DNA of 41,012 nucleotides, taken from Gammaproteobacteria bacterium (GTDB taxonomy: Bacteria > Pseudomonadota > Gammaproteobacteria > S012-40). The notes below the pieces were generated by a model. The model saw only the letters and a list, made by a program, of their open reading frames with translations. It made no database searches and was not told the origin of the DNA. The position numbers and the translations under genes were made by a program. The stretch is from positions 1 to 41,012 of the forward strand of contig WFVN01000011.1 of the NCBI GenBank assembly GCA_015491615.1, given 5' to 3'. Each line of letters starts with the position of its first letter. Position 1 is the stretch's first letter. This document shows, piece after piece, positions 12,899 to 27,124 of this stretch.

Positions 12899-13654
12899 AT
12901 GAGTGACAAAACGATTCAGGGGCTGCGCAAGATGGCGCTCGTGGCGGTCGCTTTGGCCGTGCCGATGGCGGCTAGCGCAGGGCCCGAGCCGGGTAAGGTC
13001 ATGAAGACCGCCAATATCGAGAATGGCAAGAACATCTACTTCAACGGCAAAGGCGATGTCCCTGCTTGTGCTTCCTGTCATGGGCAGGATGGTTTGGGTG
13101 ACGACGCTATGGGAACACCGCGTTTGGCCGGACAAGGTTTCACTTACGTCCGCAAGCAGTTGGAAGATTATGCCAGCGACAAGCGCATGGATACCACCAT
13201 GTTCGTCATGAACGCCAACGCCAAGGGATTGAGTGAGCAGGATCGTATCGACGTCGCCGCATATCTCTTCCAGTGGAAACAGCCTTACACCGGCTCGGAT
13301 CTGAAAGCGGTCGAAGAGTTGGGCCAGCCGATAGGTAAGCGTCACCTTGGCAAATCTCTCGTCATCTATGGTGCGCCGGAGAGGGGTATTACTTCTTGCT
13401 ATGCTTGTCACCAGTACAATGGGCGGGGTGCATACCCCATTTATCCTGAGCTGCTGGGGCAGAGGTACGTCTATCTGGTGAACCAGCTCAAGAAATGGCG
13501 TGATGAGAGCCGGACCAATGATCCGGGCGCGCAAATGCGGGAAGTGGCAAAGAATATGTCTGATGAGGATATCTATAACGTTGCTACCTATTTGTCTACG
13601 GCGCCGCCCAGCACTATCGGGAATTCTTACGTCCCGTATCATCCTATACCATAA
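12899..13654 (+). CDS. Periplasmic diheme cytochrome c (c4-like)
   Basis: SD AGGGAGGG lies upstream. A signal peptide is present (ALVAVALAVPMAASAG). There are two CxxCH motifs (CASCH, CYACH), each followed by a class-I cytochrome c half (RLAGQ...QL..Y, LLGQ...QLKKWR) as in c4/c553 diheme proteins. Confidence 0.85.
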   Translation: MSDKTIQGLRKMALVAVALAVPMAASAGPEPGKVMKTANIENGKNIYFNGKGDVPACASCHGQDGLGDDAMGTPRLAGQGFTYVRKQLEDYASDKRMDTTMFVMNANAKGLSEQDRIDVAAYLFQWKQPYTGSDLKAVEELGQPIGKRHLGKSLVIYGAPERGITSCYACHQYNGRGAYPIYPELLGQRYVYLVNQLKKWRDESRTNDPGAQMREVAKNMSDEDIYNVATYLSTAPPSTIGNSYVPYHPIP

Positions 13655-13670
13655 GGCGGACACACTAATA

Positions 13671-13698: not shown

Positions 13699-13801
13699 AT
13701 TTGTTAATTTGATAGAACTCGGGTGACAACGTTAGGTCTGAAGAATGAATGCAAATATTTCGTTATTTGTTTTGCCGTAGGAATCGGAGGATAATTAGCC
13801 G

Positions 13802-14359
13802 ATGGGGAAGAAGCAGCCCTTGAAGCAGGGCGAAAAAATTCTGTTCGGTATATTTGGGGTTTTTTTGGGGCTGGCGGTTCTCGCGTATGCCATTCTAGAG
13901 ATAGTGCGTCTCAAATCGGAAGAACCCATATTCCAGTCCAGGACAAGTTATGCGTTGTCGGAAGAGGGTAAGCTTGGATCCAAGTTATTTCGCGAGCGTC
14001 GTTGTACCGCATGCCATCGCGCCATGCGTAATGGAACGAACATGGGTCTGAATCTGGATGGAATCGGGAGTCGAAAAAATGTCGATTGGCTCTACGGTTT
14101 CTTGAGTGAGCCGGAAAAATATTACGGAGCTCCCACGCTCGATCATGGCTATCGCCCCAAAGAAGCGGCCTATGTTGCCGACCTGCCCGAGAGTGAGCGT
14201 CGTGCCATCGCCGTATTTTTGTCGGAATTGAAATCTGAAAGAGGATCCGCTTCCGCATGGGTACCACCTGAGGACGACTCCGGTTTTATCGATAAGATGA
14301 TTCGACTCTGGGCGCCGCCGGAATGGGCGGAAAAATATGAAGATGTGAGGGAAAAATGA
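13802..14359 (+). CDS. Membrane-anchored monoheme cytochrome c
   Basis: An N-terminal TM helix (ILFGIFGVFLGLAVLAYAIL) and a single CTACH. The LDGIGSRKNVDWLYGFLSEP segment resembles the CcoO-type heme domain and is paralogous to ORF 20533..21009. Confidence 0.8.
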   Translation: MGKKQPLKQGEKILFGIFGVFLGLAVLAYAILEIVRLKSEEPIFQSRTSYALSEEGKLGSKLFRERRCTACHRAMRNGTNMGLNLDGIGSRKNVDWLYGFLSEPEKYYGAPTLDHGYRPKEAAYVADLPESERRAIAVFLSELKSERGSASAWVPPEDDSGFIDKMIRLWAPPEWAEKYEDVREK

Positions 14360-14895
14360 ATAGCCAACCCGACAAGAAACCGTGGGAAGAGGAGGAATAC
14401 ACGGGCTACACCCTACGCTTTATCTATGCTTGTATTGTCTACGCCATCATTGGTTTTTCATGGGGCGCTTTGATGGGAGGGGTCTCAGAGTTCAGGCATT
14501 TCGTCGATCATCGTTTGCATGGTGATCTCATCGTTCGCGCCCACACCCACATCAATCTTCTAGGGTGGGTGGAGATGGCCATTTTTGGTGCTGTTTACTA
14601 CCTTATCCCGCGCCTGGTCAAGCGAGAAATCTACAGTATGGGACTGGTGAAGGTACATTTTTGGATGCACAACTTCGGCTTGATCGGTATGGTGGTACTG
14701 TTCACCGTGGCGGGTATCATCGGTGGGCGTGCGAGTTTGCACATGACACCCGATCAGATCGAGCCTTTGGTGAGGCCTTGGCTTGCGGGTGTGGGGCTGT
14801 TCGGGACGTTGGTCCTCATCGCCAATATCATTTGGGGCTACAATATCTTCAAGACCTGTAGGGGCTGGAGGTTGGCCTATGTTGCGGAGAAATAA
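14356..14895 (+). CDS. Four-TM paralogue of helices X-XII of the CcoN-like subunit (stand-alone heme-copper oxidase subunit I C-terminal fragment)
   Basis: The ATG overlaps the preceding stop (ATGA). My hand alignment to residues 334-407 of the 16637..18043 product gives 28/74 identities without gaps. These include LHG....AHTH..LLGW vs VHG....AHAH..LLGF, AVYY, KR.IYS and H.WM. The C-terminal IANIIWGYNIFKT vs IGNIVWLYNMYKT match adds 8/13. Confidence 0.8.
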   Translation: MNSQPDKKPWEEEEYTGYTLRFIYACIVYAIIGFSWGALMGGVSEFRHFVDHRLHGDLIVRAHTHINLLGWVEMAIFGAVYYLIPRLVKREIYSMGLVKVHFWMHNFGLIGMVVLFTVAGIIGGRASLHMTPDQIEPLVRPWLAGVGLFGTLVLIANIIWGYNIFKTCRGWRLAYVAEK

Positions 14896-15394
14896 ACTCG
14901 AGATTGCAGTGCTGTTCATGGTGTTCTTGGCGACTGTTGGTTGCCTATCCAAGGATGCCAGCGTCAAGGTCGGTGAGTCAGTGCCGAGCATCAAGACTAA
15001 GACCCTTGCGGACGTGGGAGGAGATTTCTCTCTCATCACGAGCTATCGTTATCCCGATGAGCGTATGTACCAGTTATCCCTTGATGAGGCGCTTCAAGCA
15101 GGTCGTCCCATCGTACTTGAATTTGCTACGCCAGGACATTGTACGGTTTGCGATAAGCAATTACAGATGCTCAAGGGCTTACTGGACAAGTATGAAGACG
15201 AGGTGATTTTCCTCCACATGGATCAGTATCAGAATCCCGAGGCATTTAAAGCTTTCAAGGTCATCGGTGACCCTTGGACGTTCGTCATCGATGAAAATGG
15301 AATCGTTCGATACAAACAGCCAGGTCGCGTGCTTTACAACGAGCTCGATTGGGTTCTCAGCAAAGTACTTGGTGGTGAGCAGGGTAACGTCTGA
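14879..15394 (+). CDS. Thioredoxin-fold lipoprotein with CxxC motif (TlpA/redoxin-like)
   Basis: The ATG at 14879 lies inside the last 17 nt of the preceding gene. The signal peptide ends in a lipobox-like FLATVGC. FATPGHCTVCDKQ is a Trx-like CxxC context, and the PWTFVIDENG cis-Pro region is typical of redoxins. Confidence 0.7.
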   Translation: MLRRNKLEIAVLFMVFLATVGCLSKDASVKVGESVPSIKTKTLADVGGDFSLITSYRYPDERMYQLSLDEALQAGRPIVLEFATPGHCTVCDKQLQMLKGLLDKYEDEVIFLHMDQYQNPEAFKAFKVIGDPWTFVIDENGIVRYKQPGRVLYNELDWVLSKVLGGEQGNV

Positions 15395-15846
15395 TGGCAA
15401 AGCGCAAAGAGTTCATCATTCGTCCAGACAAGCGGGGTGTTTGGTGGGATTTGCTCTTGTATGTGCCGACGGTGATCATTCTTATGCTGATAGGCTTGAA
15501 GCTATGGTACTCGGGTAAAGAAGGTTGGGGTTACCTCTTGGAATTTCTCGCGACGTTTTTTGCCTTCGTAGGGGGAAATCGCATCGCTACGCGTTTGCAA
15601 CTCACTGGTAAGTCACCGGTGAAGGTGACGGTGGACAAGCAAGCCGTTTTGGTCGACTTGAAAAAAGGAGAACAAGTCGCCTTGGTGAAGAATGTTAAAT
15701 TCTTCAGTGATTATGCAGGGCGGTCGTTTGCGGTAAGCGGCATCGATAGTAGGGGGGAGAAAAAAAGCTATGTCTTCCACAAAGGGCAATTCACATTGGA
15801 GGATGAATACAAGTCCGCCCTGTCCGCTCTACGGGTTTTTGCTTAG
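15394..15846 (+). CDS. Membrane protein with two N-terminal TM helices and a ~90-aa soluble domain (possibly bacterial PH-like)
   Basis: The ATG overlaps the preceding stop (TGATG). The hydrophobic helices are LLLYVPTVIILMLIGLKLW and YLLEFLATFFAFVGG. I recognised no catalytic motif. Confidence 0.6.
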   Translation: MAKRKEFIIRPDKRGVWWDLLLYVPTVIILMLIGLKLWYSGKEGWGYLLEFLATFFAFVGGNRIATRLQLTGKSPVKVTVDKQAVLVDLKKGEQVALVKNVKFFSDYAGRSFAVSGIDSRGEKKSYVFHKGQFTLEDEYKSALSALRVFA

Positions 15847-16034
15847 CCACGTTTTGCGCGGTAAATGTTCCGGGCAAGGATGGCGAGGACAAAGATACCT
15901 ATGATTTCCGCGATGAGAATGATAATCAGTTTTGCTTCGTCGGTGACGAAACCATCCACCATCATATGAATCGAGTAGCCCAGCAAGAACAAGAAGCCAA
16001 ATGCCGATATAAGGTAAAGAGCTATTTCTTTCAT
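15843..16034 (-). CDS. Small two-TM membrane protein (63 aa)
   Basis: This is the only minus-strand ORF inside the cluster. The hydrophobic product is MKEIALYLISAFGFLFLLGYSIHMM...LIIILIAEIIGIFVLAILA with an RNIYRAKRG tail. Its 3' end overlaps the convergent gene by 4 nt. Confidence 0.45.
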   Translation of the reverse strand: MKEIALYLISAFGFLFLLGYSIHMMVDGFVTDEAKLIIILIAEIIGIFVLAILARNIYRAKRG

Positions 16035-16204
16035 CGGGTTATACCTGTTTCTGATGTATCGGGTTTATGTAACTATAATTGATGAGGTGGGAAGGCCAAT
16101 AGTCCTTGACCCGGCATGATCGTCTATGCAACGATTTGTAGTCGCTAATGAAAGGCGAAATTCATAATTGTTTTAGTCGGTTATAAGCGCATAAGGGAGG
16201 GGTT

Positions 16205-16468
16205 ATGAATAAGCTTCTGATTTGTATCGTTGCCGGAATGACCACCGGAATGGGCAACGGGAGCGTCTTTGGGGCGACGTTGATGTGCTTTCTTGGGCGT
16301 GGCAAATTCGAGGATTGGGGTGGGGCGCCCAATGCTTTGAACTTCCACCCCGCGACTTTCACTGGGTTCGTGGACTGGGTGATGATCGTGTTTGGCGTGG
16401 CCTTTGTCATCATCATGGTGTTGGCCTTGGCGAAACACGAGCAGCTTGAGGCTGCAGCGTCGCGTTGA
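16205..16468 (+). CDS. Small membrane protein (87 aa), first gene of the oxidase operon
   Basis: A strong SD (AAGGGAGGGG) lies 4 nt before the ATG. The product has a hydrophobic N-terminus and a C-terminal TM helix (FVDWVMIVFGVAFVIIMVLALA). Confidence 0.6.
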   Translation: MNKLLICIVAGMTTGMGNGSVFGATLMCFLGRGKFEDWGGAPNALNFHPATFTGFVDWVMIVFGVAFVIIMVLALAKHEQLEAAASR

Positions 16469-16524
16469 GCGTTGCCCGTTGGATCGTATTGCTTCAGACT
16501 TTTCATTAAAAAAGGAGGGGGATC

Positions 16525-16617
16525 ATGGCGACATTCGCTAGTTTCTGCGGGATTCTGCTCGCGTTCGCGAGCATGTGGTTTGCTTGGTATCTGCTGATGC
16601 CGCGGGAACGCGGTTAA
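16525..16617 (+). CDS. Candidate 30-aa single-TM micro-protein immediately upstream of the CcoN-like gene (CcoQ-position peptide)
   Basis: It is absent from the ORF track because it is shorter than 60 aa. SD AAGGAGGGGGA ends 4 nt before the ATG at 16525. The product is MATFASFCGILLAFASMWFAWYLLMPRERG, with TAA at 16615-16617, 19 nt before the next start. Confidence 0.5.
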   Translation: MATFASFCGILLAFASMWFAWYLLMPRERG

Positions 16618-16636
16618 TTTAAGGGGAGGTCTGTCG

Positions 16637-18043
16637 ATGCTTAAATATCTCTTCATGAGGAACGAAGATATCCCGCCCGGCACTGCGGCAGTTTTCTTCG
16701 GCTTCTCCTCAATCGTCTGGTTTGTGCTTGGTACCGGGCTTGGATCTTTCAATGCGGCCAAGCTGGCCTTCCCGGACTTCGTCACGGGTATCGAGATGCT
16801 GTCTTTCGGGCACATGCGGCAGGTGCACGTGCTCGCCGTGATCCTGGGATGGATCTCCATGGCGTTCGCCATGACCATGATGTACATCACGCCTGCCCTG
16901 GGTAACACCAAGCTCTGGTCCGAGAAGTTGGGGGTTTGGAACTGTGCCCTCTGGAACATCGGCCTTGCATTGGGTCTCTTCCTCCTCTGGATCGGTATTT
17001 CCTCCGGGCGTGAATATTCCGACCTCATCTGGCCCGTCGATCTGGTCGTTATCTTTGGTGTTCTCTTTCCGCTCGGCTTGAATGTCTGGATGACGATCAA
17101 GAATCGTCGTACCCAAGGTATTTACACCACGAACTGGTTCTTTGGTGCGGCCGTTTTCATGGTCATCGTGGTATTCCTGGTGGGTAACACCCCCGAGTTC
17201 TTCAATCTAACTGGTCTGACGGAAGCCTATCTGACTTGGTGGTTCGCTCACAATGTGTTGGGTCTATGGATCACCCCGGTAGCCGCTGCCATTTCCTACT
17301 ATGTGGTGCCGAAAGTCACGGGTAATCCACTGTACTCACACCGTATCGGCCATTTGCATTTCTGGTCGGTCGTGGTGTTCTACTCCACGCCCGCTGCGCA
17401 CCATTTGATGGCTGCGCCTCTGCCGGAGTGGCTTAAATCCTTTGCCTCCGTGGAGGGTGTGTTGATTCTGGTGCCGGCCATTGCCTTTGTGTCCAACCTC
17501 CTGTTGACCATGACCGGTAAGTGGCGGATGTTCGTCGAGAACATCGAGATCAAATACACCATCACGGGTGTATTGCTCGCCATTCCTTTAAACGTGCAGG
17601 GTGGTTTCCAGCAGACCCGCGCCATCAATTGGTACGTGCATGGTACAGGCTGGATCGTCGCGCATGCGCACTTGGCATTGTTGGGCTTCTCTACCTTCCT
17701 CGAGGCTGCAGCAGTGTATTACGGTCTCCAAGTGCTGTTGAAGCGGAAGATCTACTCTCTGGCCTTGGCCAATTTCCACTACTGGATGTTGCTCATCGGC
17801 TTCTCCATCTACTGGATTTCCATGACCATCGCAGGTCTGATCCAGGGTGCGGGTAAGATTTACGAAGTGCCCTACATTGATGTGGTGATCGCTGAGCATC
17901 CCTACATGATCGCTCGTTGGGTCGGTGGGACGTTGGTGTTCATCGGCAACATCGTGTGGTTGTACAACATGTACAAGACGGCGGTCGCTGGTACGCCTAT
18001 CCCGGCGGGTCGCCTACCTCATGAGCTGGCCTACGAGCGTTGA
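16637..18043 (+). CDS. ccoN: C-family (cbb3-type) heme-copper oxidase subunit I, CcoN-like
   Basis: SD AGGGGAGG lies upstream. The product is 468 aa with 12 predicted TM helices. Ligand motifs are FGHMRQVH (H64), WWFAHN (H205), FYSTPAAHH (Y249, H255, H256) and VAHAHLALLGF (H343, H345). Confidence 0.9.
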   Translation: MLKYLFMRNEDIPPGTAAVFFGFSSIVWFVLGTGLGSFNAAKLAFPDFVTGIEMLSFGHMRQVHVLAVILGWISMAFAMTMMYITPALGNTKLWSEKLGVWNCALWNIGLALGLFLLWIGISSGREYSDLIWPVDLVVIFGVLFPLGLNVWMTIKNRRTQGIYTTNWFFGAAVFMVIVVFLVGNTPEFFNLTGLTEAYLTWWFAHNVLGLWITPVAAAISYYVVPKVTGNPLYSHRIGHLHFWSVVVFYSTPAAHHLMAAPLPEWLKSFASVEGVLILVPAIAFVSNLLLTMTGKWRMFVENIEIKYTITGVLLAIPLNVQGGFQQTRAINWYVHGTGWIVAHAHLALLGFSTFLEAAAVYYGLQVLLKRKIYSLALANFHYWMLLIGFSIYWISMTIAGLIQGAGKIYEVPYIDVVIAEHPYMIARWVGGTLVFIGNIVWLYNMYKTAVAGTPIPAGRLPHELAYER

Positions 18044-18069
18044 TAATAATTAGAAGGGAGGAATGAACA

Positions 18070-19020
18070 GTGGCATTCAGAGAATATAAAATCGGGGTGC
18101 GAATGTTCGCATTCGCCCTCGGCAGCTCCATGATCATCACTCTCTATTTCCCGAGTGTAGACATGGCATCCGTGCAGGCGACCGAATACGCCCTGAAACG
18201 GCAATTGGCCTATGGTCGCATCGGTGGGTTCAGCTATGAAGATCCCCTCTTAAAGGGCTGGGGCAAGCCGGTCACTGTCACTCTGGACAAGGATCCGGTG
18301 ACGGGCAAGCCCATTGAGCCGACGGAGGCATATGTTTATCCCCCTGGGACGCCATTCCCCAGCGGTATTACTCATCCCCGTATCCTGGGTGAGGGTGTGG
18401 AGGACTTGAGTGTTTCGGTGGGACGGATCAGCGAGGCCAACAAGGAGAATGGCGCCGTATTCATCATCCGCGAAGGTGAGTTCCAGGGGCAGACGGTTGC
18501 GTACATTGAGAACGCAACGGCCACTCGCGGTTGGCAGGCGCAAACCACTTTGGCCGCTGTCTCCGATGATGCGCGTCAATATGTCGGGTCGGGCAAGATC
18601 ATGTTTGTCCGCGAAGGTTGTTGGTGGTGCCATACCTTGTTGCCGGAACAAACGCAGGACTGGCAGTATTTCGGTGCGCCACCGATGTTAGGTGACTTCA
18701 ACGGCGAGTCGCCGACCGCCTTCGGCTCTGACCGTAAGGCGCCCGATCTGCTGCATGTGGCTTCCCGCAACTCCTCGCGGGAATGGATGAAGTTACATTT
18801 CTTCAATCCTCGACTCGTCCAGCCGCACTCCATCATGCCCCGCTACGATTATCTCTGGGGTGAGGTGGATGCCGAAGGAAATAAGATCGACTACGACCGG
18901 TGGCGCGCGGAGTACGATGAGTATGTGGAAGGGAAGCGGGTCTATCCGCCCGAAGTGCCCGAGCCGCATCCCGATAGTGAGGCTCGGAAGCTCATTGATT
19001 TCATGATGTTCTTGAAATAA
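18070..19020 (+). CDS. ccoO: CcoO-like membrane-anchored monoheme cytochrome c subunit with a ~115-aa insertion
   Basis: The GTG start lies 8-9 nt after SD GAAGGGAGGA. An N-terminal TM helix is followed by REGCWWCH (Cys184-His188 by my count). The remainder follows the CcoO pattern: GSDRKAPDL, SREWMKLHFFNPR and SIMPRYDYL (Met ligand context). Confidence 0.85.
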   Translation: MAFREYKIGVRMFAFALGSSMIITLYFPSVDMASVQATEYALKRQLAYGRIGGFSYEDPLLKGWGKPVTVTLDKDPVTGKPIEPTEAYVYPPGTPFPSGITHPRILGEGVEDLSVSVGRISEANKENGAVFIIREGEFQGQTVAYIENATATRGWQAQTTLAAVSDDARQYVGSGKIMFVREGCWWCHTLLPEQTQDWQYFGAPPMLGDFNGESPTAFGSDRKAPDLLHVASRNSSREWMKLHFFNPRLVQPHSIMPRYDYLWGEVDAEGNKIDYDRWRAEYDEYVEGKRVYPPEVPEPHPDSEARKLIDFMMFLK

Positions 19021-19035
19021 GGGGGGATACAGCAG

Positions 19036-19668
19036 ATGGCCTGGAAATTTGACAACCCGCTTTATACGCTCACGGACGAGCAAGAGAACGAAAGAGCGAA
19101 ACAGCTCTGGGATTCTGAACCGCTGGGCGGCATCACGGAAGACAACAATCGTCTCCCAGTGCCAGTGGTTGGCTTGCTGGCATTGACGATCATCACGGCT
19201 TTCATGATCACCTTCCCGCTTTGGGGACACCGTCCAACGGCTGCGATTTATGAGCCGTATCTTGAGCTCATGGACACGCCGGAGATTCAGGCGTTGCCTA
19301 ATGATGAGGAACGGATGAAGCGGATGGAGAATATCGTCTTCTCCGACAAGAAATATGCTGATCTCATCCCTCATCTTGAGCGGCATCCAGTGGAAATGGA
19401 CGACCTGCGGATGATCAAGCCCCAGGTGCTCGAGCTCAAGCGGCAGGGTGAGCCTTTGGATTGGTACTTCGTGGTTGGAAACAAAGTGGTACTCGCCAAC
19501 TTCGAGGGTAATCTCTTGCCGGATGGTCGACGCGAACGTAAGCAGCCGTGGTGGGACATTGGTTATACGATCGACGTGTTCTATATCCTGGCTTTCTGCT
19601 TGGGTGTCATGATTGCCGTGAAGCGTTTGCCTCCATACACTTGGCAACCGACCCACAACGGTCATTGA
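19036..19668 (+). CDS. Heme-less FixP_N-like (CcoP N-terminal anchor-like) membrane protein
   Basis: It occupies the ccoP position. GGITEDNNRLPVPVVGLLALTIITAFMITFPLWGHRP resembles the CcoP N-terminal domain (DGI.E.NNPLP.WW + TM). There is only one Cys, no CxxCH, and a second TM helix near the C-terminus. Confidence 0.65.
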   Translation: MAWKFDNPLYTLTDEQENERAKQLWDSEPLGGITEDNNRLPVPVVGLLALTIITAFMITFPLWGHRPTAAIYEPYLELMDTPEIQALPNDEERMKRMENIVFSDKKYADLIPHLERHPVEMDDLRMIKPQVLELKRQGEPLDWYFVVGNKVVLANFEGNLLPDGRRERKQPWWDIGYTIDVFYILAFCLGVMIAVKRLPPYTWQPTHNGH

Positions 19669-19685
19669 AAGAGGAGGAAAATCGA

Positions 19686-19820
19686 ATGATCGATATCGAC
19701 AATGGACCACTCGTCCTATTGGGGATTATCTTATTCGTTTACGTTGCGCCGTTCATTTACAGTTTCTTTGTGGATGAATACGACAAAACTAATCCACCGA
19801 CGGACGAATATTCCAAGTAA
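19686..19820 (+). CDS. Candidate 44-aa single-TM micro-protein, last gene of the oxidase operon
   Basis: SD AAGAGGAGGAAAA ends about 5 nt before the ATG at 19686. The product is MIDIDNGPLVLLGIILFVYVAPFIYSFFVDEYDKTNPPTDEYSK. A strong terminator follows. Confidence 0.5.
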   Translation: MIDIDNGPLVLLGIILFVYVAPFIYSFFVDEYDKTNPPTDEYSK

Positions 19821-19841
19821 TTATTTATTGAGGTAAATGGG

Positions 19842-19874
19842 GGCCGCCGCATGTTTTCCATGCGGCGGCCTTTT
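19842..19874 (+). terminator. Rho-independent terminator ending the CcoN/CcoO operon
   Basis: GGCCGCCGCATG (19842-19853) pairs perfectly with CATGCGGCGGCC (19859-19870) around a 5-nt loop, followed by TTTT. Confidence 0.85.
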
Positions 19875-19937
19875 ACTTGAGTACGCATTCAATGCACGAA
19901 TCGAGAACTAATTTTGCGATCAGAGGTCCCTTTCTTT

Positions 19938-20192
19938 ATGGATGATGGCAAAACCGGTATCGAACAGATTACGGGAATAGAGGGTCCATTCAGCCAACAA
20001 TTCAGCGAATGGATGTTTTATTTTCTGGTTTTCACCATTCTGATCTTTATTGGCATAGCAATATCATTTTTGATATTCAGCAGAAAGAAGCTCAAGCGAG
20101 GTGAAATCATCCTGTTTCTGTGGATTGGACTTGGGGTGATCGGTGCGGCTGTATTTGGTGCTATTCAAATGTTGCATGGTTATTTGTTCTAA
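19938..20192 (+). CDS. Small two-TM membrane protein (84 aa)
   Basis: The ATG at 19938 is in frame within track ORF 19914..20192, whose TTG start is less likely. The hydrophobic helices are WMFYFLVFTILIFIGIAISFLIF and IILFLWIGLGVIGAAVFGAIQML. Confidence 0.5.
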   Translation: MDDGKTGIEQITGIEGPFSQQFSEWMFYFLVFTILIFIGIAISFLIFSRKKLKRGEIILFLWIGLGVIGAAVFGAIQMLHGYLF

Positions 20193-20219
20193 TCCTCAAC
20201 GATAGCGAGGGCGAAGACG

Positions 20220-20504
20220 GTGAACGAGACGATTCAATCCCTACCAGATGGCTGGACGATTTATATTTGGTTGGTCACGGGTGTTTTGATCATTATCGGC
20301 GTAATTGTGGCGATTCGTTGGGCGGCGAAGAATGATCAGTTTGATGAGGACATTAAATACCTTGTGTTCGATGAAAATGATCGGGACAAGATGGACCCTG
20401 AAGAATTCAAGAAGGCCCAACTCGTCCTCAAGGAGCAAATCAAGAAGCGCGAAGAAAAACTACGGGAGGAAATGGCCCGGAAGATGAAAAAAGGGCATCG
20501 TTGA
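20220..20504 (+). CDS. ccoS: CcoS/FixS-like cbb3 oxidase maturation protein with an extended charged C-terminal tail
   Basis: A single TM helix is followed by IRWAAKNDQFDEDIKYLVFDENDRD. This matches the CcoS signature as I recall it (W..KSGQFDDLE......LFDDD). The start is GTG. The ~45-aa Lys/Glu-rich tail is absent from the ~50-60-aa canonical CcoS. Confidence 0.65.
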   Translation: MNETIQSLPDGWTIYIWLVTGVLIIIGVIVAIRWAAKNDQFDEDIKYLVFDENDRDKMDPEEFKKAQLVLKEQIKKREEKLREEMARKMKKGHR

Positions 20505-20532
20505 AGATCTTTTTTCGGACTGGACGAGTGGA

Positions 20533-21009
20533 ATGAGAAAAGGTGAGAAGGGCATTCTTATTGGGATCGCTTTGTTCGTCGCTCTGGGGGCGGGATGGAA
20601 GGCGTTGCAGTTAAGAGACATGGACGAGACTGATTATAGGATTCCATTTTACAGTGAAGCGGATCCAGAAACCGTTGAAAGAGCAGGTTATTTGATCAAG
20701 AAATATGATTGCAAGGATTGCCATACGCTTTGGGGTACAAGAAACGTGATGCAATCTGTACCTGCGCCCCCCTTGGATGGCATCGGGTCGCTCAAAACGG
20801 AAGAGTGGTTGTATCGCTATCTATCAGCGGAGAATCCCCAGACAATCTTGCCGTCGAGATTGAAACCCGAGTATCGAATGCCTTCTTTCAAAGATATGCC
20901 GGAAGAAGATCGCCGTGTGTTGGCCAAATATTTAGCAAGCCTCAAGGTGGAAGACTGGTATTTGGAAGAAGTCAAAAAGAAAGAGCGTGAAATGCTTTAT
21001 GGGGAATGA
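20533..21009 (+). CDS. Membrane-anchored monoheme cytochrome c (paralogue of 13802..14359)
   Basis: An N-terminal TM helix (ILIGIALFVALGAGW) and a single CKDCH. LDGIGSLKTEEWLYRYLSAEN matches LDGIGSRKNVDWLYGFLSEPE of the other gene at 12/21 positions by hand count. Confidence 0.8.
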   Translation: MRKGEKGILIGIALFVALGAGWKALQLRDMDETDYRIPFYSEADPETVERAGYLIKKYDCKDCHTLWGTRNVMQSVPAPPLDGIGSLKTEEWLYRYLSAENPQTILPSRLKPEYRMPSFKDMPEEDRRVLAKYLASLKVEDWYLEEVKKKEREMLYGE

Positions 21010-21027
21010 CCTATCCGTGGGGGTCGA

Positions 21028-21498: not shown

Positions 21499-21519
21499 CA
21501 GAACATTCTGTGCATTATT

Positions 21520-22593
21520 GTGGTATCCATGCGAAATCCCCACAGAAAGCTCTCACCCGAACAAAAGGCGCTGAGGAAGCGTTTTTTGTATGCCACGTTA
21601 GTGACATCCGTGGCACTTGCCATGATCGGCGGTAGTTGGCATGTCATTGAATTGGGTGCCATTCGCATGGAGGAGATGCGGGCGCGTGCCACCTATGATT
21701 TGTCGGAAATGGATAAGAAGTTACGCGCGGCGGGTGAAGATATCATTCGCCATGCGATGCATGAGAAAGGGCTGGTACGATTCGATTACGAACTGATAGA
21801 AATCGAGTCTTTACTCACCCATGAACAGTGGGCAGAGTTGGAGCGGATGATTTTGATTCCGGAGGGCGAGTTCATTGCTGGTACGGATCTGAAATCGGCC
21901 GATCCACAGGACAAACCGGCTCATTCTGTTTATTTGCCCGATTATATGATCGACAAATATCCTGTGACTGTGGCTCAGTATGCCCGTTTCGTGGCTGCGA
22001 CGGGTCATCGCCCTCCCTTGGATTGGGAAAATGGGCGTTTTCCTAAAAACAAGTTATTCCATCCGGTGACCATGGTGGGTTGGTTCGATGCCCGAGACTA
22101 CTGTGCCTGGGCGGGGAAGCGATTGCCGACGGAATACGAGTGGGAAAAAGCCGCGCGCGGGACGGATGGCAGGCGCTGGCCATGGGGCAATCATATGGAT
22201 CCTCAGCGTTTGAACACCTATTACAGCGTCGGTTCGACCACCGATGTGACGGCGTTTCCCGATGGAGTGAGTCCTTACGGTGTCTATGACATGGCAGGTA
22301 ACGTCTTTGAATGGACGGCCTCCGATTTCAAGCCTTATCCGGGCTCGGATGCTCCGAGAATCCTGTTTCAGGTGAAAGTGCCCGTGGTACGGTCAGCAAA
22401 GGACAAGGCGCAAGGAGTTGCTGACTTGGAATTTGTCGAAGGTGTCTATTACAAGGTTTTGCGAGGTGGATCATGGAAGAGTGATCCGTTTTCTACGTCC
22501 GCATATCATCGGAATTATGCGCTGGCGAGAAACGCTTCCGATTTTTTTGGTTTCAGGTGTGCGGCGGATGTCGAAGGGGGTGATAAAAAATGA
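21520..22593 (+). CDS. Membrane-anchored FGE-sulfatase (SUMF1/formylglycine-generating-enzyme-like) domain protein
   Basis: An N-terminal TM helix (LYATLVTSVALAMIGGSW) is followed by the FGE-fold pattern: IPEGEFIAGT, H.V.L..Y.IDKYPVT..QY..F, HPV..V.W.DA..YC.WAGKRLPTE.EWEKAARG, WPWGN, G.YDM.GNV.EW, LRGGSW and GFRCA. The start is GTG at 21520 or ATG at 21529. Confidence 0.8.
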   Translation: MVSMRNPHRKLSPEQKALRKRFLYATLVTSVALAMIGGSWHVIELGAIRMEEMRARATYDLSEMDKKLRAAGEDIIRHAMHEKGLVRFDYELIEIESLLTHEQWAELERMILIPEGEFIAGTDLKSADPQDKPAHSVYLPDYMIDKYPVTVAQYARFVAATGHRPPLDWENGRFPKNKLFHPVTMVGWFDARDYCAWAGKRLPTEYEWEKAARGTDGRRWPWGNHMDPQRLNTYYSVGSTTDVTAFPDGVSPYGVYDMAGNVFEWTASDFKPYPGSDAPRILFQVKVPVVRSAKDKAQGVADLEFVEGVYYKVLRGGSWKSDPFSTSAYHRNYALARNASDFFGFRCAADVEGGDKK

Positions 22594-22817: not shown

Positions 22818-22818
22818 G

Positions 22819-23166
22819 ATGGGGCGCTGGTTGCTCGCTTGCGTGGTGTGCTGGGCGTTTGTCAGTAATTCGGTTTGGGCCGATGAGGTGGCGAGCGGCG
22901 AGGGGGGTGAATCGTTGCATGTCATCAAGCCCTTCGTGGAGCAGGAGATCGACCGTGAGATGTTCACGGAGGAAGAAAAACATCAGATCCTGTTCTACAT
23001 GGGTGTGATCTTGTTGTTGTTGTTGATCGCCACCGTCGCTTTCGGGATAGGAATGGTGTTGTTCGATAAACCTTGGTTCGTGGGCCACATGGTGTCCGCT
23101 GGTCTGACCGTGACTCTTGCCGTCGCCCATGCGGTCGCGGCGGTGGTGTGGTTCTTCCCCTTCTGA
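22819..23166 (+). CDS. Small membrane protein (115 aa; signal peptide plus two TM helices)
   Basis: The ATG lies 1 nt after the preceding stop. It has the signal peptide WLLACVVCWAFVSNSVWA and two TM helices containing His residues (FVGHMVSAGLTVTLAVAHAVAAVVWF). Confidence 0.5.
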   Translation: MGRWLLACVVCWAFVSNSVWADEVASGEGGESLHVIKPFVEQEIDREMFTEEEKHQILFYMGVILLLLLIATVAFGIGMVLFDKPWFVGHMVSAGLTVTLAVAHAVAAVVWFFPF

Positions 23167-25790
23167 TGCGTTCCGACCCTGCCCCTTCGCGCGGGTCGTC
23201 TTACCTGCTCTTCGCTTATTTTCTCTCTGGCTCGGCAGCTCTGGGATATCAGATTCTTTGGGCCCGTTGGTTGAGTCTTCAATTCGGGGTGAGCAACCTC
23301 GGTGTGTTGTTGGCCGTGGTGGCTTTCCTGTTGGGTCTGGGTCTGGGTAGTGCTTGGGGGCTGCGGCGCATCTGGGACCCTCGGTCCGGTTTGAGAGCGT
23401 TCGTTTTCGTCGAATTGGGTGTTGCCGCTTACATGTTGATGGCTCCGATGGTTGCGGCCGGGGTTTATCCCATCATCGCCGATTTGGCGAAGGGATCGGA
23501 CTTGGGTCAATGGCTTTTCATCCAAGGGGGCGTGGCCGTGGTCATGCTCACTTTGCCGGCATTGGCCTTGGGGTATGCCTTCACGGCGTTGGTGCAGGGT
23601 TGGCGTGCTGAAGGTGCGGAATTGCACCGCCTGTATGGTTGGAACACCTTGGGCGGGGTGGTGGGTGCTTTGGCGCCTTTGATCGTCCTGCCGACTTTGG
23701 GGTGGCATGCCAGTCTTTGGGTGTTTGCCGGAATTGGGCTGATGGCCGCGGTCGTAGGGGCGTGGATGCTGCGGGGCCTGCCTTTGGGAGCGGAGCGTTC
23801 AGTGGTGTCGAGCGCAAGGGGACGGTTGGATGTGCGCCCTTTGGGGTGGTACGGCTTGGTGGGGGTGGGAGCGATCATGCTGGAGATCGCCTGGGCACGG
23901 CTGTTCGGCCTCGTCTTTCTGCGCACTGAATACGTGATGGGGGTGATTTTGGCTGTTTACTTGGCGGGCATTGGCCTTGGAAGCCTGGCCGCCATGCGAT
24001 TGCGAGGCGCGGTATGGTTGTCGGTGCTACCTCTCGGGGTGGCGGCAGCAGCGCTGGGAAGTTTGGCGTCGGTGGGGATGCTCGGTGCCTGGGTCGAGGG
24101 GCGCACGTGGTCTGGCCTGTTGCAAGCGGTGGTGGCACAGGGGGTGGTGTTGTTCGTGGTCATGGTGCCGGTGACTTTCATTCTGGGATTGTGGCTGCCC
24201 CTGTTGGCGCGTCGCATGGGTGACGATAGGCGCGCCGGTCCGGCCTTGTACGCGGCGAACAGCGTCGGTGGGGCTATTGGGGCGCTGTTGGCGGGCCTCT
24301 TGGTGGTGCCATGGGCGGGTACCACGGCGGCTGGGGTGGTGGCGGCGGGGGTGTTGTTGGCGGCTGGTCTGGCTTTGGCGCCACAGCGGTGGGCCTGGGT
24401 GGCGGCACTGCCGTTGCCAGCTTTGGCTGTACCGCTGTGGTCCATGCCCGAGCCGGCCGAGCTGTTGCCGCGCACCTACCAGGGGGCTCGGACCCTGCTG
24501 ACCTATGAGGATGCGGTGAGTATCACTCATGTGGTTTCTCAGCCTTCCGGTGAACGCTTGTTGCTGTCGGATCTTCAGCGCATGGATGCGTCCACCGAGC
24601 CCCAAGCGGTGGCTGGGCAACGCAATCAGGTGCGTTTGCCCCTGCTGTTGCATCCGGCGCCGAAACGCGTTCTGTTGCTTGGATTGGGGACGGGAATCTC
24701 CGCTTCGGCCGCCCTGGCGCTGCCCGATGTCCGGGTGACGGCGGTGGAACTCTCACGCGGGGCCATCGAGGCTGCTGATCGGTTGTTCTCCCAAGCGAAT
24801 CTAGGCGTGATGCAATACCTTCAGGTCGTGAACGATGACGTGCGCCATTTTCTCTTGGCCGACGACGATCGCTATGACGTGATCGTCGGGGATCTGTTCC
24901 ACCCGGATCTGGTCGGGCGCAGTGCCTTGTTGAGCGTGCAGCAGTTTCGCCGCGTGCGAGAACGCTTGGCTCCGGGTGGGGTGTTCGTTCAGTGGCTCAC
25001 TCTCAATCAGTTCGATACTGAGAGTCTACAGACGGTGCTGCGCTCCTTCGCCCGGGTTTTCCCCGATGGGCGCCTGTTCCTGGACGGTTTCCGCCTCGCC
25101 CTGATGGGCGGGCGCCAAGCGCCCCTCCCGGCGGTGGCGATGGCCGTGCACGAGCGGGATCTGGATCCGCGCCGCTTCGCTTTCCTCACCGGTGGCGAGG
25201 GGCGTTGGACCTGGCTGGGCCGATACTGGGGGACGGTGGCGGACCTGCCCCCGGGGCCGGTGCAGGACGAATGGGCGCCGCGCATCGAATATCAGCTCCC
25301 GCGGGCCCGTTTCGCTGGCCAAGTGGACGTGCGCGCCAACCTCGCTTGGCTGCAGGAGCGCCGACCGGGTGCGGCCCAGGCGGCCACGGCCTTGGGGGTG
25401 AAAGAGGCTTCACGATTCATGCGCGCCTATCGGGCCACCGACCTGGCATTGCGAGGGTTCCTGGCTGCCCTGTCCGAGGATCCCGCCAGCGATCGCTGGA
25501 TACGCCTCGCCTATGAGACCAACCCCGATGATCGTTGGGTCGCCACGGCCTACGCTCAGCGTTTGTTGGACACCCTGCCGCAGGCGCGCAGGCGTGGGTT
25601 GGACGAGGCCCGCGCGTTGGATCGCATTCTGGCGGTGCGTGCCGATTTTGTGCCCGCTCTCCAGCGGCGCTTGGCATTGGCCCAGGAACGGGGGGAGCGT
25701 GACCTGGTCCAATCCCTCGCTGCACGAATTCGTGTCCTCGACCCTTATGGGGCGGCCTCAAGGGCGGTTCAGGTCCCTATGCTAGACTGA
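23166..25790 (+). CDS. Fused polytopic membrane / spermidine-synthase-like (class I methyltransferase-fold aminopropyltransferase-like) protein with a helical-repeat C-terminus
   Basis: The ATG at 23166 overlaps the preceding stop (TGATG). The N-terminal ~420 aa hold many TM helices (FLSGSAALGYQILWAR...). Next comes a SpeE-like core: VLLLGLGTGISA, VTAVELS and DVIVGDLFHP. The ~200-aa C-terminus is alpha-helical and repeat-like. Confidence 0.75.
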   Translation: MRSDPAPSRGSSYLLFAYFLSGSAALGYQILWARWLSLQFGVSNLGVLLAVVAFLLGLGLGSAWGLRRIWDPRSGLRAFVFVELGVAAYMLMAPMVAAGVYPIIADLAKGSDLGQWLFIQGGVAVVMLTLPALALGYAFTALVQGWRAEGAELHRLYGWNTLGGVVGALAPLIVLPTLGWHASLWVFAGIGLMAAVVGAWMLRGLPLGAERSVVSSARGRLDVRPLGWYGLVGVGAIMLEIAWARLFGLVFLRTEYVMGVILAVYLAGIGLGSLAAMRLRGAVWLSVLPLGVAAAALGSLASVGMLGAWVEGRTWSGLLQAVVAQGVVLFVVMVPVTFILGLWLPLLARRMGDDRRAGPALYAANSVGGAIGALLAGLLVVPWAGTTAAGVVAAGVLLAAGLALAPQRWAWVAALPLPALAVPLWSMPEPAELLPRTYQGARTLLTYEDAVSITHVVSQPSGERLLLSDLQRMDASTEPQAVAGQRNQVRLPLLLHPAPKRVLLLGLGTGISASAALALPDVRVTAVELSRGAIEAADRLFSQANLGVMQYLQVVNDDVRHFLLADDDRYDVIVGDLFHPDLVGRSALLSVQQFRRVRERLAPGGVFVQWLTLNQFDTESLQTVLRSFARVFPDGRLFLDGFRLALMGGRQAPLPAVAMAVHERDLDPRRFAFLTGGEGRWTWLGRYWGTVADLPPGPVQDEWAPRIEYQLPRARFAGQVDVRANLAWLQERRPGAAQAATALGVKEASRFMRAYRATDLALRGFLAALSEDPASDRWIRLAYETNPDDRWVATAYAQRLLDTLPQARRRGLDEARALDRILAVRADFVPALQRRLALAQERGERDLVQSLAARIRVLDPYGAASRAVQVPMLD

Positions 25791-25795
25791 CGGCC

Positions 25796-27124
25796 ATGTC
25801 CAAGGTCCAATCGGTGTTCAGGATCCAGCCGGCGAAGGGCAACGCGCTGCGCACCCACCGCCTGCATCGGATGCGCCGTGCCACTCAATTAGGCACTTTG
25901 TTGCTCCTGGTGCTCATTCCTGTCAGCGGTCTCTTCCGCATCGACCCGGTGGACGGTGCCTTTGTCGTCCTCGACCGGCAGATCTGGTTCTCCGATTTTT
26001 TCATCGTCGTCGGTCTTTGGTTGGCGATGGCAAGCGGGTTGGTGATTACTTACTCCATGTTGGGGATGGTGTTCTGCGGCTGGGCCTGTCCGCAGAATAC
26101 CCTTTCCGAGTGGGCCAACGAAATGACCCATCGGTGGCTGGGGCGCCGGGCCGAGGTGACCCTGGACGGTGCCAAGATGGACGTGGCCCAGCGCAAGAAC
26201 ACCCCCCTCAATTGGGTCATCTTGGGGGCCTTGTACTGGGGGGTGTCGATGTTGCTCGCCCTTATCCCCCTATTCTATTTCTATCCCCCGGACGTGGTAT
26301 GGTCTTTCGTCACCTTCCGTGAGGACGAGCGTCTCGCCGGTTCGCTCCACTACATCTATTTCGTCTTCACTCTCATCATTTTCTTGAACATCGCTTTCAT
26401 TCGGCACTTCATGTGCCGGTTCATGTGCATCTACAAAATCTGGCAACACGGTTTCAAGACCAAGGACACTCTCCACATCGCCTATGACGCTTCGCGCAAG
26501 GCCGATTGCGAAAAGTGCAGCAAATTGTGCGAAGCGCAATGTTTCTTGGGGTTGGACCCCAAGAACACTGAGACCTACGATGCCTGTATCAACTGCGGTG
26601 AATGTATCGTCGCTTGCGATGCCGTCCATGCCAAGAAGGGAGAGCCTGGGCTGCTGCGTTTCGAGGTGGGCGAACGACAGTCGGCCCGCTTGGCCGCTTT
26701 TCGCACCAACCTGGGAAGTTTCGTCGGTCGGGTCCGCTGGACCATTCCCTTCACCGCGCTCGGCATCGGGATGTTCGTTTGGGGCCTCTACACCTACGAG
26801 CCAGAGCGCCTCACCGTCTATCAGGACGCGGAGGCAGGGCGTCAGGTGCACGACCGCTATCGGATCAACGTTGCCCACAAGCTGTACCGACCGGCGGAGG
26901 TGACGCTGGCCGTGGAGGGCCTGCCGGAGGGGAGTTATCGGCTCGAGCGTGACAGGATCTTTTTCCAGTCCACCGGTCGTGTCGATGTGCGTCTCTATCT
27001 CACGTCCCGGTTGGAGCCGGGCGTGCACACGTTTCTGGTCCGGGCGCGTTCCAGTGAAGGCTGGTCGGACGCGTTCCGGGTTCGTCATTTCGTCGCCGCT
27101 GGCGACGTGCAACAGGAGGGGTGA
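25796..27124 (+). CDS. ccoG: CcoG/FixG-like membrane iron-sulfur protein (cbb3 oxidase accessory, cupric-reductase family)
   Basis: Motifs FCGWACPQNT, MCRFMCIYKIWQ (variant of C..CPYARFQ), CEKCSKLCEAQC and CINCGECIVAC are present. A C-terminal TM helix and an Ig-like domain (FixG_C-like) follow. Confidence 0.8.
   Translation: MSKVQSVFRIQPAKGNALRTHRLHRMRRATQLGTLLLLVLIPVSGLFRIDPVDGAFVVLDRQIWFSDFFIVVGLWLAMASGLVITYSMLGMVFCGWACPQNTLSEWANEMTHRWLGRRAEVTLDGAKMDVAQRKNTPLNWVILGALYWGVSMLLALIPLFYFYPPDVVWSFVTFREDERLAGSLHYIYFVFTLIIFLNIAFIRHFMCRFMCIYKIWQHGFKTKDTLHIAYDASRKADCEKCSKLCEAQCFLGLDPKNTETYDACINCGECIVACDAVHAKKGEPGLLRFEVGERQSARLAAFRTNLGSFVGRVRWTIPFTALGIGMFVWGLYTYEPERLTVYQDAEAGRQVHDRYRINVAHKLYRPAEVTLAVEGLPEGSYRLERDRIFFQSTGRVDVRLYLTSRLEPGVHTFLVRARSSEGWSDAFRVRHFVAAGDVQQEG

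Follow-up and report, generated by a model that had tools for sequence, protein, structure and literature searches.

A probable sub-family of cbb3-type oxidases with an enlarged CcoO subunit carrying an orphan periplasmic domain

What kind of terminal oxidase is specified by a ccoNO-like gene pair whose second member encodes a cytochrome subunit of unusual length? This question is raised by a 41,012-nucleotide stretch of DNA from a gammaproteobacterium (contig WFVN01000011.1 of GenBank assembly GCA_015491615.1, positions 1 to 41,012 of the forward strand; hereafter the window), where two adjacent open reading frames (ORFs) at 16637–18043 and 18070–19020 encode proteins resembling subunits I (CcoN) and II (CcoO) of cbb3-type cytochrome c oxidases. 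Oxidases of this type set the lower oxygen limit of much bacterial respiration, and what is known of their mechanism comes almost entirely from CcoNOQP as found in a small number of Proteobacteria. With some reserve, we favor the view that ccoNO of the window is the core of a distinct and tightly conserved sub-family of C-family (cbb3-type) enzymes, for which an electron route is proposed, along with an anchor subunit derived from CcoP and a structural insert in CcoO.

The CcoN-like subunit I (468 amino acids; 16637..18043, plus strand), predicted to carry haem b and the haem b3-CuB center, matches the Pfam family COX1 with E=1e-74 and a score of 252 bits (cut-off 34.8). When it was compared with all PDB chains by phmmer, CcoN of Pseudomonas stutzeri was matched (3mk7_A; E=2.7e-61) and four further solved CcoN proteins were also retrieved, with the nitric oxide (NO) reductase subunit NorB far behind (4xyd_A; E=4.6e-7). 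Motifs FGHMRQVH, WWFAHN, FYSTPAAHH and VAHAHLALLGF start at residues 57, 201, 248 and 341 and provide H64, H205, Y249 with H255/H256, and H343/H345, respectively, exactly as counted in an earlier inspection of the letters by themselves (the sequence-only reading). That reading had also named the P. stutzeri equivalents, and the alignment with 3mk7_A bears it out: H64 pairs with H60, H205 with H207, Y249 with Y251, H255/H256 with H257/H258 and H343/H345 with H345/H347. The spacing of the ligands, including the tyrosine six residues ahead of the histidine pair, is in register with the solved CcoN proteins, and no shift was seen in the alignment. Together, the six histidines cover the haem b ligands in helices II and X, the haem b3 ligand in helix X and the CuB ligands, one of them in helix VI and two in helix VII.

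All six histidines and Y249 are invariant in 73 members of the CcoN family. Y249 is the helix-VII tyrosine expected to be cross-linked to the helix-VI histidine, the cross-link itself being a prediction. Also kept and invariant in the family are E126 (E122 in P. stutzeri, the glutamate of the calcium site), Y221 (Y223), H241 (H243) and T213 (T215). We take the active site of cytochrome c-dependent NO reductases (cNOR) to contain glutamates at positions +4 and +8 from the CuB histidine; in the window protein H205 is followed at these distances by G209 and T213, and neither position holds a glutamate. The C-family O2-reductase core claimed in the sequence-only reading thus finds support in an invariant set of ligands, in the invariant tyrosine and in the distance of the NorB match. 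What these features predict is an O2-reductase active site in an enzyme that is not a canonical cbb3 oxidase, and nothing among them indicates an NO reductase.

All 72 CcoN orthologues are 468–469 amino acids long and, across Gamma-, Beta- and Zetaproteobacteria, 79–93% identical to the window protein. As an observation in its own right, purifying selection on CcoN appears unusually strong for a membrane enzyme, given this level of identity despite saturated synonymous sites in the adjacent ccoO. The same saturation rules out recent horizontal transfer as the cause of the high identity between classes.

The enlarged CcoO-like subunit II (316 amino acids; 18070..19020, plus strand) starts at a GTG codon preceded at 8–13 nucleotides by GGGAGG, and its orthologues begin with MAFREYK. 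Residues 1–28 (18070..18153) form an N-terminal membrane anchor with the hydrophobic stretch KIGVRMFAFALGSSMIITLYFP, the anchor proper lying at residues ~9–28. Pfam FixO is matched with 57.6 bits (cut-off 29.6) by residues 174–264 only, which correspond to profile positions 52–142 of 219, the rest being unmatched. Likewise, solved CcoO chains (positions 55–144) match only residues 174–263/269 of the window protein. This segment (residues 174–264; 18589..18861, plus strand) is a monohaem cytochrome c domain with CWWCH at residues 184–188 (nucleotides 18619–18633), GSDRKAPDL at 219, HFFNPR at 243 and SIMPRY at 254. M256 in the last motif is the candidate methionine ligand; in the alignment, SIMPRY falls on the S/K-MP-x-Y motif present in CcoO chains of solved structure. 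Both the retention of the haem c domain and the position of CWWCH had been stated correctly from the letters of the window. The layout of canonical CcoO proteins (~200–245 amino acids, with the haem motif ~65–70 residues from the N-terminus) is not found here, as the protein comprises 316 residues and its CxxCH begins at residue 184.

How much of CcoO is additional depends on the method of alignment. Using the canonical ccoNOQP of Rhizobium, taken from a plasmid record, as hhalign reference, homology to CcoO could be extended N-terminally as far as residue 146, with a gap of 13 residues. The extra segment thus amounts to ~117 residues (29–145) according to hhalign and to 145 residues (29–173) according to HMMER, so that the ~115 residues initially estimated to lie between anchor and haem domain were a fair figure. 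Across 81 sequences the mean frequency of the most common residue is 0.84 in the anchor, 0.63 in the insert and 0.94 in the haem domain. The haem domain is the most conserved part of CcoO also in terms of non-synonymous divergence (pN), which is 0.053 there and 0.31 in the insert, as computed along with synonymous divergence (pS) against the 59 orthologues of the same length. Synonymous sites in ccoO are saturated (pS 0.72–0.82; 0.76 in the insert), and the lineages must therefore have diverged anciently. A pN of 0.31 against a saturated pS of 0.76 indicates that the insert is under purifying, though weaker, selection; its pN/pS of 0.41 is an upper bound.

The insert (residues 29–173; 18154..18588, plus strand) is a lineage-specific domain predicted to be periplasmic. 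An AlphaFold2 model of CcoO built on 65 family members has a predicted template modeling score of 0.79, and the local confidence (pLDDT) of the insert is 90–98 over residues ~60–170. The modeled insert is of the alpha/beta type, with strands at 68–74, 81–90, 128–138 and 141–148 plus short helices. The haem domain was modeled poorly, which is to be expected in a model without haem. Although the insert is the least conserved segment of CcoO, it shows almost no insertions or deletions and has ~25 invariant positions, mostly glycine, proline and aromatic residues. In the window protein it contains no cysteine, one methionine and one histidine, the nearly invariant H102 of the motif HPRILG. The lack of a conserved cluster of cysteine, methionine or histidine argues for a structural domain without a cofactor.

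The sequence-only reading had been unable to assign this region to any fold, and so it stands after hidden Markov model, profile and Foldseek searches. A phmmer search of 1.84 billion cluster representatives with residues 35–175 retrieved 22 proteins, nearly all of them members or fragments of the family itself; on inspection, a few matches to long repeat proteins, all of low identity, were put down to chance. An alignment of the insert alone, run against Pfam and PDB at E<=10, gave nothing beyond single inconsistent matches. With the full CcoO model, Foldseek found CcoO chains in the PDB for the haem domain only (E~5e-3), and for the insert only noise-level matches to OB-fold proteins (RuvA, CST, SSB; probability <=0.05). 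No relationship of the insert to the 210-amino-acid protein encoded downstream or to a 150-amino-acid hypothetical protein of the cluster was detected by hhalign. The insert thus appears to have no homologue outside the long-CcoO family in the searches made. The notion that the enlarged CcoO might be a widely found variant, annotated before and of known fold, holds only in its first part: the variant is common, the insert is not annotated and its fold has no known relative.

Directly downstream of ccoO, and adjoining it in 81 of 84 loci, lies a gene for a 210-amino-acid protein (19036..19668, plus strand) with two predicted transmembrane (TM) helices (residues 42–62 and 178–196), a mainly helical periplasmic domain of ~110 residues and no haem motif. 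The Pfam family FixP_N (PF14715), which covers the N-terminal anchor of CcoP, was matched below its gathering score at residues 32–64 by all 12 family members scanned singly (best E=1.7e-4), the FixP_N-like motif being GGITEDNNRLP with an invariant E35. In a comparison of a 60-member profile of this family with Rhizobium CcoP, hhalign returned a single local match of residues 29–62 to CcoP 18–53; the aligned segments, GGITEDNNRLPVPVV and DGIQELNNPMPRWW, respectively, are 32% identical over 34 columns, and GGITEDNNRLP falls on the CcoP motif DGIQELNNPMP. Invariant E35 pairs with Rhizobium E24, which corresponds to residue 49 of P. stutzeri CcoP by the 25-residue offset to 3mk7_C. We take Glu49 to be the proposed entrance of a proton channel. 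The protein itself has no sequence match in the PDB. A dihaem CcoP, recognizable by a FixP_N motif plus two CxxCH motifs, is not encoded in the cluster, and the 210-amino-acid protein is without CxxCH. Judged from these local similarities, it is probably a haem-less anchor derived from CcoP.

Is the long CcoO a peculiarity of one contig? Homologues were sought among 5.8 billion proteins, and 905 clusters had E<=0.001. Among the best 120 of these, almost all are exactly 316 amino acids long and 66–96% identical, and where a database name is given it reads 'cbb3-type cytochrome c oxidase subunit II'. When each GTDB species was represented by one genome, 388 stretches encoding the protein were detected. 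The best 80 of the 388 belong to gammaproteobacterial metagenome-assembled genomes (MAGs), many labeled Chromatiales, Ectothiorhodospiraceae or Thiotrichales, to Ca. Tenderia, Nitrosomonadales, Gallionella, Sideroxydans and Burkholderiales, and to one zetaproteobacterial MAG; all 80 orthologues fetched comprise 313–321 amino acids. A search seeded with the sequence of a Sideroxydans MAG led to a 318-amino-acid CcoO on a 3.0-Mb contig of the isolate Sideroxydans lithotrophicus. In the complete genome of S. lithotrophicus ES-1 (CP001965.1) the locus has the same neighbors, including a 259-amino-acid dihaem cytochrome. The window contig itself was assembled independently from several samples (MAG GCA_027017085.1). 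The family is absent from the plasmids of PLSDB, where the best CcoN is 34% identical, and the window stretch was found in no indexed RNA run.

This distribution connects the window to systems that have been described before. The gene order of the window agrees item by item with that of the Ca. Tenderia electrophaga cluster as listed in the legend of Fig. 2B of a preprint: dihaem, monohaem, truncated CcoN, thioredoxin, four hypotheticals, CcoN, CcoO, three hypotheticals, monohaem, and, further on, CcoG (bioRxiv 10.1101/2022.05.06.490989). There, the Tenderiales region is termed 'cbb3-1 and cbb3-2' and 'a sort of alternative complex IV', and is reported to be conserved in freshwater iron oxidizers. 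Genes of the non-canonical 'complex IV-2' are among the most highly expressed in metatranscriptomes of the biocathode organism Ca. Tenderia electrophaga, and a preceding metaproteome study had already drawn attention to 'a hypothetical protein homologous to ... CcoO' (PMC5371394). Papers on iron oxidizers divide cbb3 oxidases into 'proximal' and 'distal' types after Ducluzeau 2008 (PMC8788666, PMC7029218, PMC10734462). Strain ES-1 has one proximal and one distal cbb3 cluster, with a cyc1 homologue linked to a cbb3 cluster, and its 'distal' ccoN and ccoO are at the ~95th–99.5th expression percentile (PMC8788666). Since ES-1 carries the long-CcoO cluster beside a dihaem cytochrome, we infer the 'distal' enzyme to be the one with the long CcoO.

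Thus, the system of the window is almost certainly the 'distal cbb3' of iron oxidizers and the 'cbb3-1, alternative complex IV' of Tenderiales. The enzyme family, its gene cluster and the database names of the subunits are already known. In these papers CcoO figures as a plain subunit II or a 'hypothetical protein homologous to CcoO' (PMC8788666, PMC5371394, bioRxiv 10.1101/2022.05.06.490989). The insert, the altered channel residues discussed below and the FixP_N-like protein find no mention in the iron-oxidizer and Tenderiales papers examined, which did not include Ducluzeau 2008. As far as checked, the orphan inserted domain, three invariant substitutions to glycine, alanine and glutamine in CcoN and the haem-less FixP_N-like subunit are apparently undescribed.

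Taking these data together, we propose that electrons would enter at haem c of CcoO, delivered by a periplasmic c4/Cyc1-type cytochrome and/or by anchored monohaem cytochromes, and would pass via haem b to the b3-CuB center, where O2 would be reduced. Protons may enter by a modified KC-type route, the mouth of which would still be formed by a vestigial CcoP anchor, i.e. by the 210-amino-acid protein as a haem-less descendant that kept the channel-mouth glutamate. The insert of CcoO, possibly together with the periplasmic domain of the 210-amino-acid protein, would occupy the periplasmic face that is covered by the CcoP haem domains in canonical enzymes. Most likely, it would cover or stabilize the face bared by the loss of these haem domains and form a docking surface for the donor. 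A location of the insert in place of CcoP, which the sequence-only reading had given as an example of where it might pack, is plausible, but the picture is complicated by the probable haem-less CcoP-like subunit encoded directly downstream. It is tempting to speculate further that the insert and the periplasmic domain of the 210-amino-acid protein act as a receptor that wires the oxidase to a chain for extracellular electron uptake, running from outer-membrane Cyc2 or a multihaem conduit via c4/Cyc1 to CcoO. That would make it a dedicated 'iron/electrode oxidase', whose own proton pathway (G238/A315/Q321) is tuned to high-potential, low-energy donors. We regard this extension as rather doubtful.

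Four other explanations have to be weighed, all of them weaker than the proposed sub-family with its structural insert. A long CcoO that merely reflects a wrongly called start, two fused genes or chimerism of the assembly would fit the G+C content of ~50% across 12–23 kb against ~69% in the flanks. However, the same contig was obtained in several independent assemblies, the ORF is uninterrupted and has its own ribosome-binding site, 80 orthologues from other assemblies agree in length and in the MAFREYK start, the complete genome of ES-1 encodes the long form too, and the dip in G+C content at third codon positions (GC3) is modest and also present in other high-GC hosts. Independent assemblies and 80 orthologues of 313–321 amino acids refute an artefact of assembly or gene calling, to which we attach practically no weight. 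If the insert is real, it might still be a neutral decoration of this lineage, kept for folding and neither docking a donor nor replacing CcoP. Its standing as the least conserved region of CcoO (0.63; pN/pS 0.41 as an upper bound) and the lack of detectable relatives are in keeping with this idea, which we nevertheless consider unlikely: the length is essentially invariant across lineages with saturated synonymous sites, insertions and deletions are almost absent, ~25 positions are invariant, the fold is confidently predicted, and the insert always co-occurs with loss of the dihaem CcoP and presence of the 210-amino-acid protein. Conversely, one might suspect a catalytic or cofactor-binding module, such as a periplasmic Fe(II) or copper site feeding electrons or metal to the oxidase, in a family that is concentrated in iron- and electrode-oxidizing lineages. 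H102 of HPRILG is nearly invariant, E57, D58 and D75 are invariant in the 65-sequence alignment, and a fold without known relatives leaves room for a binding site. Against this stand the composition of the window insert (no cysteine, one methionine, a single histidine), its conserved glycines, prolines and aromatic residues, which are typical of a fold scaffold, its rank as the fastest-evolving part of CcoO, and the lack of CxxCH or of a match to a Pfam metal-site family. A cofactor module is thus highly improbable.

The fourth alternative concerns the reaction itself and is best considered along with those observations that weigh against the reading we prefer. Residues S240, Y317 and E323 (P. 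stutzeri numbering) are present in all five solved CcoN proteins and are replaced by G238, A315 and Q321, invariantly, in the 73 CcoN proteins of the window family. We take S240 and Y317 to line the KC proton channel and E323 to be the hydrogen-bond partner of the proximal histidine of haem b3; these roles reportedly go back to Buschmann 2010 and to mutagenesis in the Gennis laboratory. A literature search for E323, Y317 and S240 found nothing relevant. With these replacements neither the proton path nor the pocket proximal to haem b3 is canonical, and both proton delivery and the haem b3 environment may, to judge from the residues, differ from those of characterized cbb3 enzymes. Both subunits fall far below the thresholds of their NCBIfam equivalogs, with 221.5 bits for CcoN on TIGR00780 (cut-off 583.15) and 59.7 bits for CcoO on TIGR00781 (cut-off 200.65), and CcoN scores marginally higher on PRK14485 (229 bits) than on TIGR00780 (221 bits). 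O2 reduction by the long-CcoO family is a prediction. Regarding the CcoP-derived anchor, all 12 FixP_N matches lie under the gathering score (24.9 bits), the hhalign match to Rhizobium CcoP has E=0.0044 and a probability of only 7.9%, no solved CcoP chain was retrieved with the profile of the 210-amino-acid family, its N-terminal 46 residues or a 51-column profile, and Foldseek found nothing in the PDB with the model of this protein. Where the insert lies with respect to CcoN, the 210-amino-acid protein and the donor is pure inference, and the identification with Ducluzeau's 'distal' clade of 2008 comes from synteny and elimination in ES-1 rather than from a tree. Canonical cbb3 enzymes are generally known to have some NO-reductase side activity. 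Combined with this, the S240G, Y317A and E323Q replacements, the absence of CcoP and the low equivalog scores could suggest that the enzyme is not primarily an O2 reductase and is instead a C-family derivative for NO reduction or for non-pumping O2 scavenging. We judge this very unlikely: the cross-link tyrosine and the three CuB histidines are invariant, the NorB glutamates at +4 and +8 from H205 are absent, the NorB match is far weaker than that to CcoN (4.6e-7 vs 2.7e-61), Y221, H241, T213 and the putative Glu49 equivalent are kept, and the cluster is reported to be highly expressed in microaerophiles growing on O2 (PMC8788666, PMC5371394).

The genes around ccoNO are consistently those of a single cluster. 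In a tblastn comparison of 21 window proteins with 84 loci the block was syntenic in essentially every locus reaching far enough, and the whole cluster comprises ~20 genes in Gamma-, Beta- and Zetaproteobacteria. The order is 87-amino-acid membrane protein, CcoN, CcoO, 210-, 44- and 84-amino-acid proteins, FixS-type protein and anchored monohaem cytochrome c, followed by a 156-amino-acid membrane protein, a protein with a formylglycine-generating enzyme (FGE)-sulfatase domain, two small proteins, an 874-amino-acid protein and a CcoG-like polyferredoxin. All features given below are on the plus strand unless stated otherwise. The 87-amino-acid protein ahead of ccoN (16205..16468; 77/84 loci; Pfam matches sub-threshold only) is a candidate small subunit. 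The 44-amino-acid protein with a single TM helix (19686..19820; 72/84 loci), which is also called in public assemblies, is a candidate CcoQ-like small subunit, and the 84-amino-acid protein (19938..20192; 75/84 loci) has two TM helices. The anchored monohaem cytochrome c of 158 amino acids (20533..21009; Pfam Cytochrom_C, E=3.9e-6; 77/84 loci) is a candidate electron-entry subunit.

Maturation genes of both the ccoS and the ccoG type are located near ccoNO. The former encodes a FixS/CcoS-type cbb3 maturation protein of 94 amino acids (20220..20504; PF03597, 23.4 bits against a cut-off of 23.1; 77/84 loci), the latter a CcoG/FixG-like polyferredoxin presumed to act in cbb3 assembly (25796..27124; Fer4_5 with E=5.7e-12, and Fer4_18), which is syntenic wherever the locus reaches it. 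Formylglycine-generating enzymes use copper, and the protein with an FGE-sulfatase (SUMF1) domain (21520..22593; PF03781, E=6.5e-55; 73/84 loci) could be an oxidase maturation factor. In the Tenderia cluster the counterpart of the polyferredoxin is listed as 'CcoG cbb3 maturation protein', and the figure labels that of the FGE-sulfatase gene 'serine threonine protein kinase' (bioRxiv 10.1101/2022.05.06.490989). The 874-amino-acid polytopic membrane protein with a spermidine-synthase-like methyltransferase domain (23166..25790; PF01564, E=3.2e-8; 65/84 loci) is encoded between the oxidase genes and the CcoG-like gene and is a conserved partner.

A second module upstream, which usually adjoins the oxidase block and is sometimes inverted, consists of genes for a dihaem cytochrome, an anchored monohaem cytochrome, a 'truncated CcoN', a thioredoxin-like protein and the 150-amino-acid protein. 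The dihaem cytochrome c4 (Cyc1-type, 251 amino acids; 12899..13654; 53/84 loci) is the likely periplasmic donor. Its best PDB matches (E~1e-21) are c4 proteins 8uf3 and 6q2u, the latter with the same sequence as in 8smr, and Acidithiobacillus ferrooxidans c-552 (1H1O); 8SMR is the entry of the Pseudomonas aeruginosa bc1-cbb3 supercomplex, in which c4 is one of the chains. The possibility that this protein is a split-off haem domain of CcoP is unsupported, as soluble c4 is matched with ~1e-21 and CcoP with 1e-4 to 3e-3. Opposite the c4 gene, and with nearly the same extent, a 262-amino-acid ORF runs on the minus strand (12896–13684); in all likelihood it is non-coding, a shadow ORF of the coding strand with its high GC3. 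Further upstream, a 505-amino-acid ORF (10993–12510, minus strand) was ruled out as a Cyc2 porin-cytochrome, since it lacks CxxCH and encodes a polytopic membrane protein.

The membrane-anchored monohaem cytochrome c of 185 amino acids (13802..14359; Pfam Cytochrom_C, E=2e-7) is followed by the 179-amino-acid 'truncated CcoN' (14356..14895), a paralogue of CcoN residues 322–449 that matches positions 310–410 of 436 of Pfam COX1. It is 35% identical to CcoN of the window (BLASTP, E=3e-19), with AHTH aligned to AHAH, and thus retains the AH-x-H pair that provides haem b3 and haem b ligands in full-length CcoN. Its orthologues, with 57–76% identity, are present in most of the 84 loci. The overlap of its start with the stop of the cytochrome c gene suggests a translationally coupled mini 'CcoO/CcoN-like' pair. 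Next comes a thioredoxin/AhpC-like protein with an N-terminal anchor (14879..15394; Pfam AhpC-TSA and Thioredoxin; 59/84 loci).

With regard to base composition, G+C is 47–53% in most of the region ~12000–23000 and ~69% in the flanks, and GC3 is 0.46–0.72 as against ~0.74. In other high-GC hosts, too, ccoNO usually lies below its flanks in G+C. Given the saturated synonymous sites between orthologues, the low-GC stretch does not stem from a recent transfer; it may reflect the amino acid composition of membrane proteins or an old transfer with incomplete amelioration.

Variation of the cytochrome subunits in C-family oxidases is in itself unsurprising, but here it affects an enzyme that may serve as the principal terminal oxidase in a guild of biogeochemical importance. 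The long-CcoO variant is widespread, mainly in iron-oxidizing and electrode-feeding bacteria. The transcript levels of 'distal' ccoN and ccoO in ES-1 and the expression of non-canonical complex IV genes in Ca. Tenderia point to a possible role at the end of the chain, and the variant may be the enzyme that closes electron transport in neutrophilic Fe(II) oxidation and in cathodic electron uptake. It departs from the textbook cbb3 enzyme at electron entry, where the dihaem CcoP is missing and an orphan domain lies beside the entry haem, and at proton entry, with three changed channel or pocket residues and possibly a vestigial CcoP anchor bearing the entrance glutamate. These features bear on ideas about the role of CcoP, the KC channel and the Glu-His-haem b3 interaction that is thought to underlie high O2 affinity. 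Because annotation pipelines label the subunit 'subunit II' or 'hypothetical', surveys cannot separate the variant from canonical cbb3 oxidases; the insert is a simple sequence signature for telling them apart. If it were indeed a receptor for extracellular electrons, it would also, as a functional marker, indicate lithotrophic electron uptake more sharply than ccoN or cyc2 by themselves. As the variant is present in a cultured organism, these points are directly testable.

Among known systems, cNOR (NorBC, e.g. 4XYD) belongs to the same superfamily and likewise combines an anchored monohaem c subunit with a 12-TM catalytic subunit and no dihaem third subunit; the match to NorB is very distant (E=4.6e-7), and the window enzyme has the three CuB histidines and the active-site tyrosine, the latter absent from cNOR, and no glutamates at +4 and +8 from the CuB histidine. 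PRK14485 (fused CcoN-CcoO) and PRK14486 (CcoO with a C-terminal cytochrome c) illustrate that cytochrome subunits can be re-arranged within the C-family. They add or fuse known domains, whereas the domain added in the window is internal, haem-free and without detectable relative. Another non-canonical, plasmid-borne arrangement is found on pAZKH of Azoarcus sp. KH32C (NC_020548.1, 412271–421587), which encodes a 541-amino-acid CcoN, a 201-amino-acid CcoO, a 195-amino-acid 'cytochrome c' and a SCO-family protein, with ccoQ and ccoP not annotated.

Closest to the window are the 'distal cbb3' and the Tenderia cbb3-1 systems, which share its gene order, include a 318-amino-acid CcoO in ES-1 and show no difference at the sequence level. 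The canonical CcoNOQP enzymes (P. stutzeri, 3MK7/5DJQ; P. aeruginosa, 8SMR; Rhodobacter capsulatus, 6XKW) are more remote. Identity in CcoN is about one-third (34% at best to a plasmid-borne CcoN), S240/Y317/E323 are G/A/Q in the window, CcoO has gained an orphan domain of 117–145 residues, a haem-less 210-amino-acid protein with no more than a FixP_N-like motif is encoded instead of a dihaem CcoP, and the cluster adds a truncated CcoN, the FGE-domain protein and the spermidine-synthase-like membrane protein. Common to both are a 12-TM CcoN with the same haem and CuB ligands, helix-VII tyrosine and calcium-site glutamate, a CcoO with anchor and monohaem c domain carrying CxxCH and methionine, nearby genes for FixS and CcoG, and a c4-type cytochrome as plausible electron donor.

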